Part shown: positions 11,218 through 46,177 of the stretch, piece after piece
Numbering within the stretch: position 1 is the stretch's first letter
Layout: each line of letters opens with the position of its first letter
Source of the DNA: an uncultured Nitrososphaerota archaeon
Lineage (GTDB): Archaea > Asgardarchaeota > Njordarchaeia > Njordarchaeales > Njordarchaeaceae
Direction: 5' to 3'
NCBI GenBank assembly: GCA_964518475.1
Contig: CAZFGR010000001.1
Span: forward strand, 160,001-224,000
DNA: 64,000 nt
The notes under the pieces: generated by a model
The model's input: only the letters and a program-made list of their open reading frames with translations
Told to the model about the DNA's origin: nothing
The model's database searches: none
Position numbers and translations under genes: made by a program

Positions 11218-11874
11218 CTATCTCGAGGCCTCCGCAATCCTCTCGATCTCAACTTTCTTTCTTATAGCATAGCTATCCATACTATTTCTAGCTGCAAGAA
11301 TTATTTCCTCTGCAAGACACTCCGCTAAGGAGAGAGGACTATTCCAAGCTCGTCTTCTTGCACCAGCTACTATGAATTTTAATGCTAGATCTAATCTTCT
11401 TTGCGGGGCAATGTCAACAGCATATCTCCTAACAATACCTCCTTGTCTTATCTCTACCGTTTCTTCACGAGGCGCTACATTTTCTAGTGCCCTAACGAAT
11501 ACTTGAATTGGATTTTCATTTGTTCTTTTTTCAATTATTTCAAATGCCTGCTTAACTATACCTAGCGCATGGAATTTTTTGCCACCCATCATTCCAATTT
11601 TCTTTGTACCTTTTTCTCTTCCCGGCGCTAATAATCTATTGACAAGTCGCTCCACAATAGGAACATTCGCTTTACCGAACTTTCTTTTCGCATGTCTACC
11701 AAAAGTGTGAGGAAGATACACGGGTTTGAGATTAATATAAGCCCTTAGCCCCGGATCCCGAACTGTGATCCCTTCATAGCTCCACTTACCGAATAGCTTT
11801 AGAGCAGGTTGTAGAGATAATTCTTCCTGCTTCTCACTTTGTGACTCATTATTGCTTTCGTTTTCCTGGCTCAT
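11218..11874 (-). CDS. rps7: 30S ribosomal protein uS7
   Basis: KLFGKW, PIVERLVN, NPIQV, APREE, AVDIAPQRRLDLAL. Confidence 0.98.
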   Translation of the reverse strand: MSQENESNNESQSEKQEELSLQPALKLFGKWSYEGITVRDPGLRAYINLKPVYLPHTFGRHAKRKFGKANVPIVERLVNRLLAPGREKGTKKIGMMGGKKFHALGIVKQAFEIIEKRTNENPIQVFVRALENVAPREETVEIRQGGIVRRYAVDIAPQRRLDLALKFIVAGARRRAWNSPLSLAECLAEEIILAARNSMDSYAIRKKVEIERIAEASR

Positions 11875-12035
11875 CAAGACCCCCAGCTGTTTTAAGCTAT
11901 TACGTGATATACTACTAGTCATATGAAGAGTTTATTTAAAAGTTTGAGAATTATAGGAAATCAACACACATATTTAAATTTGCTAAGAATGGATTATGGA
12001 AAGTATATTACTGAGGTTCTGGATAGGGGGATTTC

Positions 12036-12509
12036 ATGGTAACTAAATCTCCACGTGGTGAATTTGCTGCAAGAGTTTTGCGAAGAAAAAGAAAAAAGCA
12101 GAGATGGGCTGATGTAGAATATAGAAGACGAATGTTGAGGCTTCGAGAAAAATACGATCCCCTAGAGGGCGCTCCTCAAGCAAGCGCCATAGTTTTGGAG
12201 AAAGTGGGTATAGAAGCTAGAAAGCCAACAGGAGCTCTTAGAAAAGCTGTAAGAGTAAAAATAAAGAAAAATGGAAAAATTGTAACAGCTTTCGTGCCTT
12301 ACGATGGAGGATTATTATTCATAGATGAGCACGACGAGGTAATCATTGAGAGGATAGGGGGCAGCCAGGGACGATCAATGGGGGACATGCCCGCGATCAA
12401 ATGATCGCGGGCACCCCAAATCCCAGGAGTTAAGTTCAGAGTCGTCAAAGTAGCTGGCATAGCCCTTAAGGAGTTAGTGACTGGTAGAAAGCGGAAAGAG
12501 AGAAGATAG
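12036..12509 (+). CDS. rps12: 30S ribosomal protein uS12, spliced: join(12036..12386,12420..12509), 146 aa
   Basis: uS12 N-terminal part runs to MGD; after a 33-nt insert the frame continues [29 protein letters not shown]. Confidence 0.95.
12387..12419 (+). other. BHB microintron in rps12 mRNA (33 nt, contains in-frame TGA)
   Basis: GGGG-AC^A-TGCCCGCGATCA-aa-TGATCGCGGGCA-CCCC-AA^A; canonical cuts give GAC ATC (D-I). Confidence 0.92.
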
Positions 12510-12583: not shown

Positions 12584-13624
12584 ATGGAGCCTCTTGCAGA
12601 ATACACTCGCAAAAGAATTTTTAAGATAACCCCTGAAACTGATATCCCATTAATGGGCTGTATCGCTTTTGGTTTGATTGACCGTGGCACTAATCTTATT
12701 CAGGTACGTCCAGTTACTACATGCCCTCTTTCGTGTATTTTTTGTGCAACAGATGCTGGTCCTAGATCCAGAAATAGGCAGACAGAATATATCGTCGAGC
12801 TTGATTATCTTGTTGAGGAATTTAGGAAATTGGTTATGTTTAAGGGTCCAAAAAAGATTGAAGCTCACATAGACACCGTTGGTGACCCATTGACATATCC
12901 CAGAATTGTAGAGCTGGTGCAAGAGCTATCTGAGACTCCAGGAGTTGATGTAATATCTCTTCAAACTCATGGTGTTTTGCTTACCGAGAAGTTAGTGGAT
13001 GAGCTTGATGCTGCTGGGTTATCTAGAATAAATCTCTCAATAGATTCTCTCGACCCCGATTTAGCAAAGTACCTTTCAAATACACCAAGTTATAATCTGG
13101 ACAAGGTATTAGGAATTGCTGAGTATATTGCAAACAGTAGTGGAATAGATCTTTTGATAGCTCCTGTTTGGGTTCCAGGAATTAACGATTCAGAGATCCC
13201 AAAAATTATTGAATTCGCTTTGCGTATTGGGGCTGGAAAACGTTGGCCTCCCCTAGGAATACAGAAATATATACCACATAAAAGAGGCCGTAAACCAAAA
13301 AATGTGAAAGCAATGAGTTGGTCACGTTTTTACAAGCAATTACGGATTTGGGAAAAGAAATATGGTGTAAAGCTAATTTTAAAGCCGGAAGATTTTGGTA
13401 TTCACAGGAGAAAGAGCTTGAAAGCTCCTTTTAAGATTGGTGAAGTAGTTAGAGCGACTGTTGTTGCCCCGGGATGGCTTAAGAACGAGGTAATTGGAAG
13501 AGCTAAGGGATTCTGTATAACGATAGTTAATGCAACTATTGAGGAAATACCTATAGGCACTGATGTTTTTGTTAAGATAGAGAAGACTAAACACAATATT
13601 TTGATTGGTAAGTTAGCTAGATAA
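12584..13624 (+). CDS. Radical SAM protein with C-terminal TRAM-like domain
   Basis: CPLSCIFC CxxxCxxC motif; beta-rich C-terminus (IGTDVFVKIEKTKHNILIG). Confidence 0.9.
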   Translation: MEPLAEYTRKRIFKITPETDIPLMGCIAFGLIDRGTNLIQVRPVTTCPLSCIFCATDAGPRSRNRQTEYIVELDYLVEEFRKLVMFKGPKKIEAHIDTVGDPLTYPRIVELVQELSETPGVDVISLQTHGVLLTEKLVDELDAAGLSRINLSIDSLDPDLAKYLSNTPSYNLDKVLGIAEYIANSSGIDLLIAPVWVPGINDSEIPKIIEFALRIGAGKRWPPLGIQKYIPHKRGRKPKNVKAMSWSRFYKQLRIWEKKYGVKLILKPEDFGIHRRKSLKAPFKIGEVVRATVVAPGWLKNEVIGRAKGFCITIVNATIEEIPIGTDVFVKIEKTKHNILIGKLAR

Positions 13625-33021: not shown

Positions 33022-33040
33022 ACCGAGCTATCGGGCTCAT
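33022..33040 (+). other. tRNA intron at non-canonical position 22/23 (19 nt)
   Basis: GGGT-AG^A-CCGA-gcta-TCGG-GCTC-AT^A; central helix has two G.U pairs. Confidence 0.8.
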
Positions 33041-33055
33041 AGCGTCCGGCTCTTA

Positions 33056-33091
33056 AACCCACCAGAGTATTACTCTGGTGGGTCTAGAGAA
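33056..33091 (+). other. tRNA intron at canonical position 37/38 (36 nt)
   Basis: CTCT-TA^A-ACCCACCAGAGT-att-ACTCTGGTGGGT-ct-AGAG-AA^A; relaxed BHB. Confidence 0.9.
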
Positions 33092-33230
33092 ACCGGATGG
33101 TCGCGGGTTCAAATCCCGCCCGGCCCGCCAAAACGCTTCTTTAAGTATGTTCTTATCTCCTCCTATTGTCTATCCCTACTCCCCAAAGCACTCTCTACAC
33201 TCTACTTTTGTGCATAGTATAGGTTATGTT

Positions 33231-45386: not shown

Positions 45387-46177
45387 TTACTTCTTTCTGC
45401 GTCCCGTTCTCCTAGGAGCAATAGCTCCAACTTTTCTGCCAGGTGGTGCATGTCGCGAGACACTCTTGGGCTTGCCAGGGCTCTGATCTCGCCCGCCTCC
45501 AAAGGGGTGGTCACAGGCACTGATGGGACGGGAGCCCCCACGAGTGTGTAGTGGGACTCCCGTCCTTTCATCGCCACTCCTCTGGTTCTTGGCCATTTGT
45601 GTGCTTTTACTCTCCATTTGTGGTAGGCGTTGCCTGCTTTTACTAGTGGTAGTTCGTCTTTTCCTGTTCCGGCTACTATTCCTATTTGTGCTCTGCTGTT
45701 CCAGTTTATCCTTATTATTCTTTTTCCGGGGAGTTCTAGTTCTGTTTGTTCTAGGTGCGCGTGGTGGGCTCTTATTATTGCGTATGTTCCTGCTGCTCTT
45801 GCTATTTTTCCTCCATCGCCTGGTCTTATCTCTATGTTATATACGGGTGTTCCTTCTGGAATCTTTCTTAGTGGTAGCGCGTTCCCTATATCGATTTCCG
45901 CATTCTCTCCGATTTGAATCTCCTTCCCCGTGTATAATCCTTCTGGAGCTATTAGCCAGATTTTTTCTATCACTCCATTGGCTCTTACAAACTTCACTAA
46001 TGCTAGTGGGGCATACCTTCCGGGTTCCTTATACAATTTAAGCACTGTGCCTCTGGCAACATCTTTCATAGCTTCTGGCCAGTCTGGGATTTTTACATCC
46101 GCTACTCTTATTCCTGGAGGAGCTCTGTATACTGATGTTCCTCTCCCTACCCTTTGAGCTCTTATGCGCTTACCCAT
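45387..46177 (-). CDS. rpl2: 50S ribosomal protein uL2, spliced: complement(join(45387..45519,45567..46177)), 247 aa
   Basis: MGKRIRAQR...WPRTRGVAM in one frame and DHPFGGG...PPGRKVG...RRTGRRKK in another; removing 47 nt gives [15 protein letters not shown]. Confidence 0.95.
45520..45566 (-). other. BHB microintron in rpl2 mRNA (47 nt, frameshifting)
   Basis: Minus strand ggc-GATG-AA^A-GGACGGGAGTCCCAC...GTGGGGGCTCCCGTCC-CATC-AG^T-gcc; strict hBHBh'. Confidence 0.95.

Follow-up and report, generated by a model that had tools for sequence, protein, structure and literature searches.

A predicted BHB intron in the ribosomal protein uS12 gene of a Njordarchaeales archaeon

The gene for ribosomal protein uS12 of an archaeon of the Njordarchaeales very probably carries a real BHB pre-mRNA intron with a relaxed outer helix, as judged from its sequence, its predicted fold and its occurrence in related genomes. 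The uS12 mRNA is, on this prediction, almost certainly cut and rejoined by the enzymes of tRNA splicing. The 33-nt insert lies within a 64,000-nt stretch of DNA that was analysed as a whole (the window), and a sequence-only reading of the window had already proposed a BHB intron at this site. The geometry of the insert, the in-frame junction, the intron-less orthologues, the compensatory changes, a 34-nt allele in one congener and the enzyme genes of the genome all agree with that proposal.

The uS12 gene and the geometry of its insert

The uS12 gene starts at 12036 on the + strand and is preceded by a GGGGGA Shine–Dalgarno-like run and an AT-rich TATA-like box. Its open frame at the DNA level (12036-12404) encodes 122 aa and ends at a TGA inside the insert, with the 29-codon exon 2 lying beyond it, as the sequence-only reading had stated. 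Removal of the insert joins 117 and 29 codons into a 146-codon frame for a uS12 of 146 aa, the length proposed earlier, and the two exons then abut exactly at positions 81|82 of the Pfam profile PF00164 (Table 1). Both exons can be aligned from end to end, with 0 gaps, to the uS12 of two intron-less congeners and to E. coli rpsL, and GD|IPGVKF falls over KD|LPGVRY of E. coli. The last residue of exon 1 is thus the Asp equivalent to that of the bacterial KDLPG motif, in line with the original placement of the site; in bacterial S12, this Asp is the methylthiolated residue. Oligo-T tracts, which are typical of archaeal terminators, are found 3' of exon 2, and none follows the intron. uS12 is present in a single copy (one match) in this 91%-complete genome. 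Exon 1 is 100% identical to the nearest named record, 'Candidatus Njordarchaeota archaeon B77_G9', and genome kinship assigns the window to the same genus, within Asgardarchaeota. DNA matching the stretch occurs in hydrothermal-vent and sediment metagenomes.

The uS7 gene (11218-11922, - strand) is arranged head-to-head with uS12, with 113 nt between them, whereas in the usual order S12-S7-EF-2 uS7 follows uS12; the uS7 of the window also has an additional N-terminal stretch of ~45 residues. Immediately 3' of uS12, the window encodes a radical-SAM and TRAM-domain protein (12584-13624, + strand). Its assignment as a RimO/MiaB methylthiotransferase was rejected by comparison with NCBIfam, which gave sub-threshold MoaA-like matches only, and a role as a RimO-like enzyme for the junction Asp is therefore unsupported.

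Table 1. Coordinates of the uS12 exons, of the elements of the predicted uS12 intron and of two further predicted introns
Feature	Location	Strand	Remarks
uS12 exon 1	12036..12386	+	codons 1-117, ends ...GRSMGD; PF00164 profile positions 2-81
uS12 exon 2	12420..12509	+	29 codons and TAG stop; PF00164 profile positions 82-110
BHB intron (predicted), 33 nt	12387..12419	+	61% GC vs 38% in the genome; absent at this junction in intron-less orthologues
Central 4-bp helix, exon strand GGGG	12381..12384	+	Gly codon GGG and G of GAC; pairs with 12414-17
Central 4-bp helix, intron strand CCCC	12414..12417	+	from sequence and fold
5' bulge ACA	12385..12387	+	predicted cut 12386|12387
3' bulge AAA	12418..12420	+	predicted cut 12419|12420
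Inner (intron) helix	12388..12413	+	arms 12388-99 and 12402-13, 12-nt perfect inverted repeat
In-frame TGA	12402..12404	+	stops the unspliced frame at 122 aa
Outer (exon-exon) helix	12380..12421	+	single G.U pair (12380 with 12421); 2 bp in 3 congeners
uL2 intron (predicted)	45520..45566	-	47 nt; GAUG:CAUC, bulges AAA/AGU, 13-bp GC-rich stem
EF-1alpha intron (predicted)	contig C1:93853-93883 (L194:1454-1484)	+	31 nt; CGGG:CCCG, bulges AUA/AAA

The GGGG and CCCC strands, the ACA and AAA bulges and the G.U pair are all present at the coordinates reported in the sequence-only reading. Two 3-nt bulges on opposite strands, with the 4-bp helix between them, constitute the BHB geometry, and a one-base shift of the register gives a structure of about the same stability. 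This alternative register (UGGGG:CCCCA with a 4-nt bulge) is slightly favoured by the free-energy fold and by RNAalifold, but it is not BHB-like, and an in-frame product results only from the BHB register. The 12-bp perfect inverted repeat described earlier holds in so far as the 12-nt arms match perfectly; however, since only AA separates the arms, the actual stem has 11 bp and a 4-nt loop. The 71-nt region around the insert folds with -33.7 kcal/mol, in comparison to -18.9 +/- 3.0 for shuffled sequences (z = -4.9, with 0 of 200 shuffles as good).

The outer helix of the three intron-bearing congeners consists of G.U plus U-A. With only one G.U pair in this genome, the 3' site has to be regarded as a relaxed, non-canonical BHB motif. 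Many introns of cbf5 and of crenarchaeal tRNAs have relaxed motifs of this kind (PMC2738675, PMC5829648). An outer GGGA/UCCC pairing that appears in the minimum-energy fold of the window was discounted, as it is not kept in the congeners.

The rule that cleavage occurs after the second bulge base was checked on six canonical tRNA introns of the genome against the mature tRNAs given by aragorn, and it reproduced the predicted mature tRNA in all six. The cut sites proposed for uS12 are thus calibrated on the tRNA introns of the same genome. The junctions in the uL2 and EF-1alpha genes, which are described below, also follow from this rule.

Occurrence of the insert in relatives and in other translation genes

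Six congeners (G001 to G006; the present genome is G000) were searched for the uS12 insert. An insert at the identical site is found in three of them, with 33 nt in G002 and G001 and 34 nt in G006, while in G003, G004 and G005 it is missing and the sequence is continuous across the predicted splice junction. All three 33-nt inserts (G000, G001 and G002) contain an in-frame TGA, and the 34-nt insert of G006 shifts the frame into an early stop. Therefore, a full-length uS12 can be obtained from any intron-bearing allele only if exactly the predicted bases are removed. In the four intron-bearing species, both exons differ by 0.006-0.14 nonsynonymous changes per site, compared to 0.6-0.9 at synonymous sites, which indicates strong purifying selection on the sequence of both exons. 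The conservation of the protein in spite of saturated synonymous sites further indicates that exon 2 is still coding, although it is located downstream of the TGA.

The 4-bp helix and the bulge positions are invariant across the four inserts, and 6 of the 12 hairpin pairs have changed on both sides. In this comparison of only four, mutually related sequences, 95.8% of the cells are paired; sliding the partners by 1-3 columns lowers this to 33-49%. No shuffle matched either the pairing or the covariation score. The same uS12 hairpin is recovered independently by RNAalifold. The peptides encoded by the four inserts are not conserved, in contrast to the pairing of the RNA. Furthermore, the Gly codon of the exon that contributes to the central helix is GGG in all four intron-bearers but GGA or GGT in the intron-less congeners.

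A comparison with ~184 other archaeal uS12 loci, drawn from collections of genomes and metagenomes, revealed no insert, and scans of these collections yielded no intron-bearing uS12 gene beyond the genus. Among 146 Asgard genomes from 51 genera, in which interruption was judged by the length of the open frame, the only short uS12 frames are those of the three intron-bearers whose insert has an in-frame stop and of one gene that is cut by a contig end. The insert is not an artefact: it is present in the DNA contigs of three sequencing runs, including a divergent G002-like variant, and no intron-less joint was detected in those contigs. In a rough three-gene tree, the intron-bearing G006 pairs with the intron-less G004 with full support, so that the intron must have been precisely lost at least once in recent times or, alternatively, gained a second time.

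Both strands of the 2.33-Mb genome were scanned for BHB motifs with strict geometry and a GC-rich hairpin, and the three strongest matches in coding sequences are located in the genes for uS12, uL2 and EF-1alpha. A filter for open-frame continuity was of no use as a detector, as it gave 908 candidates that were mostly gene boundaries; strict geometry combined with GC content performed better. The single uL2 gene is interrupted within an Asn codon ahead of the DHPFGGG motif. Inserts of 47 nt are also found in G002 and G004 and one of 53 nt in G005, with covarying stems, while the insert is absent from G001, G003 and the remainder of the order. Removal of the EF-1alpha insert yields ...GRFAVRD|MGQLVAVGVV, with a last exon of 17 codons; this insert is shared with G002 and G001 and absent from G004, G005, G006 and the remainder of the order. 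As in uS12, compensatory changes are observed in the uL2 and EF-1alpha inserts among the congeners that carry them, and in all three genes alleles with and without the intron have different bases at the exon positions involved in pairing with it. The GC content of the uS12, uL2 and EF-1alpha introns is 61-74%, in comparison to 38% for the genome, which fits a structure that needs to remain folded at high temperature.

Across the seven genomes, the presence of the three introns forms a mosaic. G000 and G002 contain all three, G001 those of uS12 and EF-1alpha, G006 only that of uS12 (its uL2 insert was not found), and G004 and G005 only that of uL2, whereas G003 lacks both the uS12 and the uL2 inserts and is unclear for EF-1alpha. 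In the EF-1alpha gene of G003 (L213, after position 1857), the frame runs past the junction Asp and terminates in AT-rich sequence, and the last exon was not found in the 1.5 kb downstream of the junction. The predicted introns are located at the Asp of the decoding loop in uS12, before the DHPxGGG motif in uL2 and in domain 3 of EF-1alpha. The wider proposal, that several essential translation genes of Njordarchaeales carry GC-rich BHB micro-introns in their most conserved motifs and that these introns are gained and precisely lost between congeners, can be given slightly better than even chances.

Predicted splicing enzymes and alternative explanations

The sequence-only reading had argued that the weak outer helix would require an endonuclease of relaxed specificity, and the enzymes encoded in the genome are of the expected kind. 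Two EndA paralogues are present. The 215-aa EndA (alpha), located around 372324-372578 of contig C1, contains both endonuclease domains, the catalytic one with a score of 101.8 bits. Its nearest counterpart is the catalytic subunit of the heterotetrameric enzyme of Aeropyrum pernix (3P1Z_B, E = 6e-50), and the alignment extends through the crenarchaeal-specific loop, broken only by one single-residue gap, with Lys at the positions of A. pernix K44 and R46. In vitro, K44 and this loop enable the A. pernix enzyme to cleave non-canonical as well as bulge-helix-loop motifs (PMC3241643). The 203-aa paralogue (beta-like), located around 10277-10534 of contig C26, gives a weak score and has Gln in place of the catalytic-subunit His of the DHAPF motif. 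Its matches are to 'subunit beta' models and to the structural, N-terminal half of fused endonucleases. A predicted crenarchaeal-type two-subunit EndA with the broad-specificity loop is thus encoded, and an (alpha-beta)2 EndA with the crenarchaeal-specific loop has been reported for Asgard archaea (PMC5829648).

An RtcB ligase is also encoded. The main RtcB gene is seemingly split across two contig ends (C18:30073-30752, then C5:1-1212), and a second RtcB-like stretch (C55:1173-1589) contains two in-frame TAA stops. Introns are present in 20 of the 45 predicted tRNA genes, some of them at non-canonical positions. Within the window, aragorn reports a 98-nt 'tRNA-Asn (att)' without a marked intron (33033-33130, + strand), which is probably an intron-containing tRNA that was misread by the program.

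In the proposed mechanism, uS12 would be transcribed as one unit (12036-12509), and the insert together with four exon bases would form the 4-bp helix and the two 3-nt bulges, adjoining the very stable GC-rich hairpin. EndA alpha plus beta would then cut after the second base of each bulge, and RtcB would join the exons to ...GGGGAC|AUCCCAGGA..., which codes for the complete uS12. The excised intron would probably leave as a small circle. Cleavage and ligation in the cell are inferred steps, and splicing would have to outrun translation of the unspliced message, which would otherwise stop at the TGA.

There is only a slim chance that enzymes other than EndA and RtcB, for example a different structure-specific nuclease and a ligase, remove the hairpin insert from the RNA. 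The near absence of the outer helix and the non-BHB register favoured thermodynamically would suit such a pathway, but the frame is restored by precisely the cuts that the BHB rule specifies, the same rule fits the tRNA introns of the genome and the uL2 and EF-1alpha inserts, and EndA enzymes with this loop act in vitro on relaxed motifs and on bulge-helix-loop motifs (PMC3241643). The prospects are slimmer still for programmed translational bypassing, in which the ribosome would hop over the insert and the RNA would stay uncut. In phage T4 gene 60, too, an essential gene contains a coding gap of tens of nt with a stable hairpin and a downstream in-frame stop, and in G001 and G006 a hop would yield the same protein because AUA is both the first intron codon and the first codon of exon 2. 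However, gene 60 depends on a take-off codon that matches the landing codon and on a stop beside the take-off site, and the window offers neither: its codons are mismatched (AUG versus AUC; GAC versus CAA), as are those of G002 (AUG versus AUA), and the stop follows five codons past the junction. The uL2 insert interrupts a codon and has no matching codons either. Bypassing also leaves the invariant 4-bp helix, the two 3-nt bulges and the association of the GGG codon with the intron unexplained.

That the open frame available for annotation stops at 122 aa could also mean that uS12 is disrupted, yielding a truncated product or a pseudogene with the hairpin as an inert palindromic insertion. 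This is highly improbable, because the gene is the sole uS12 copy of the 91%-complete genome, the protein sequence of exon 2 is conserved in four intron-bearing species in spite of saturated synonymous sites, the universally conserved PGV[KR][FY] loop lies in the segment that would be lost, and compensatory changes maintain the hairpin. In three of the four species the insert has 33 nt and keeps the frame, so it could in principle be translated as 11 residues with TGA read as Sec or Trp or read through, but the likelihood of this is close to negligible. It is contradicted by the frame-shifting 34-nt allele of G006, and TGA is an ordinary stop in this genome, where it terminates a quarter of the long ORFs (299 of 1184). 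In addition, the peptides vary while the RNA pairing is conserved, and the decoding-centre loop is uninterrupted in every other archaeon searched. A BHB intron that would be excised by EndA and sealed by RtcB is hence the explanation preferred here.

Known systems and implications

The closest known counterpart of the uS12 intron is the cbf5 pre-mRNA intron of the Desulfurococcales and Sulfolobales in the Crenarchaeota (Watanabe 2002, Yoshinari 2006, Yokobori 2009 = PMC2738675). Both are short BHB-type introns within a protein-coding gene, with a motif that is often relaxed in cbf5 as well. Their hosts contain a hetero-oligomeric splicing endonuclease, and in both cases the patchy distribution implies gain and precise loss. 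They differ in the host gene, which is here a ribosomal protein gene, and in the lineage, Njordarchaeales of the Asgard archaea instead of Crenarchaeota. Moreover, such introns are predicted here in no fewer than three translation genes of a single genome, unlike the situation for cbf5. Splicing of cbf5 has been demonstrated experimentally, while that of uS12 is predicted. The TruB_N match of this genome, which corresponds to cbf5, lies within an uninterrupted 340-aa frame; thus, the uS12 and cbf5 introns are analogous and not homologous.

With archaeal tRNA introns, whose BHB motifs are canonical or relaxed (hBHBh', HBh', hBH and BHL), the uS12 intron has the motif, the predicted cut positions and the enzymes EndA and RtcB in common. 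In contrast to these, it is located in the coding region of an mRNA, its inner helix of 11-12 bp is longer and more GC-rich than usual, and its outer helix is made of coding sequence and almost absent. A tRNA-type ligation of mRNAs is also found in eukaryotes: the HAC1/XBP1 mRNA is cut by IRE1 at stem-loop sites and joined by tRNA ligase or RtcB, independently of the spliceosome. There, as here, a short mRNA intron determines which C-terminus is translated, but cleavage is carried out by IRE1 instead of EndA/TSEN, the recognition motif is different, and splicing is regulated by stress.

Up to 2009, archaeal pre-mRNA splicing had been confirmed for no gene besides cbf5 (Yokobori et al. 2009, PMC2738675), and the documented cases are confined to Crenarchaeota. 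A literature search revealed no further confirmed archaeal protein gene spliced like cbf5 after 2009, nor any publication describing a BHB intron in Njordarchaeota or in the mRNA of a ribosomal protein. That uS12 would constitute the second kind of host gene for archaeal tRNA-type mRNA introns, after cbf5, is well supported. The host in this case is an essential ribosomal protein that would be cut at its most conserved loop, in a heat-vent archaeon of the Asgard lineage. As illustrated by the uS12 frame that ends at 122 aa, gene callers truncate such essential genes. The predicted intron also raises the question of how an unspliced but translatable mRNA fares against ribosomes in a cell that couples transcription with translation. 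If the multi-gene reading is true, the production of ribosomes and elongation factor depends on the tRNA-splicing endonuclease and RtcB, and translation capacity might be coupled to the state of the tRNA-splicing machinery. Splicing of the mRNAs of multiple genes by protein enzymes would then be routine in archaea that are closely related to eukaryotes.

The distribution in the genus suggests that BHB introns in coding sequences can be gained and precisely lost over short evolutionary distances. In G006, the uS12 intron (L005:493-526, - strand) begins with 8 nt, AUACCUGG, that are identical to the first 8 nt of exon 2, and the 3' arm with the central helix forms a near-tandem CCCCAGGUA/CCCCAGAUA. 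These repeats may hint at an origin by local duplication, and they are weaker in the other three uS12 introns. In another Asgard genome (G142), an 18-kb segment of a single contig (C2:16828-34956) contains one complete and three partial uS12-like matches.
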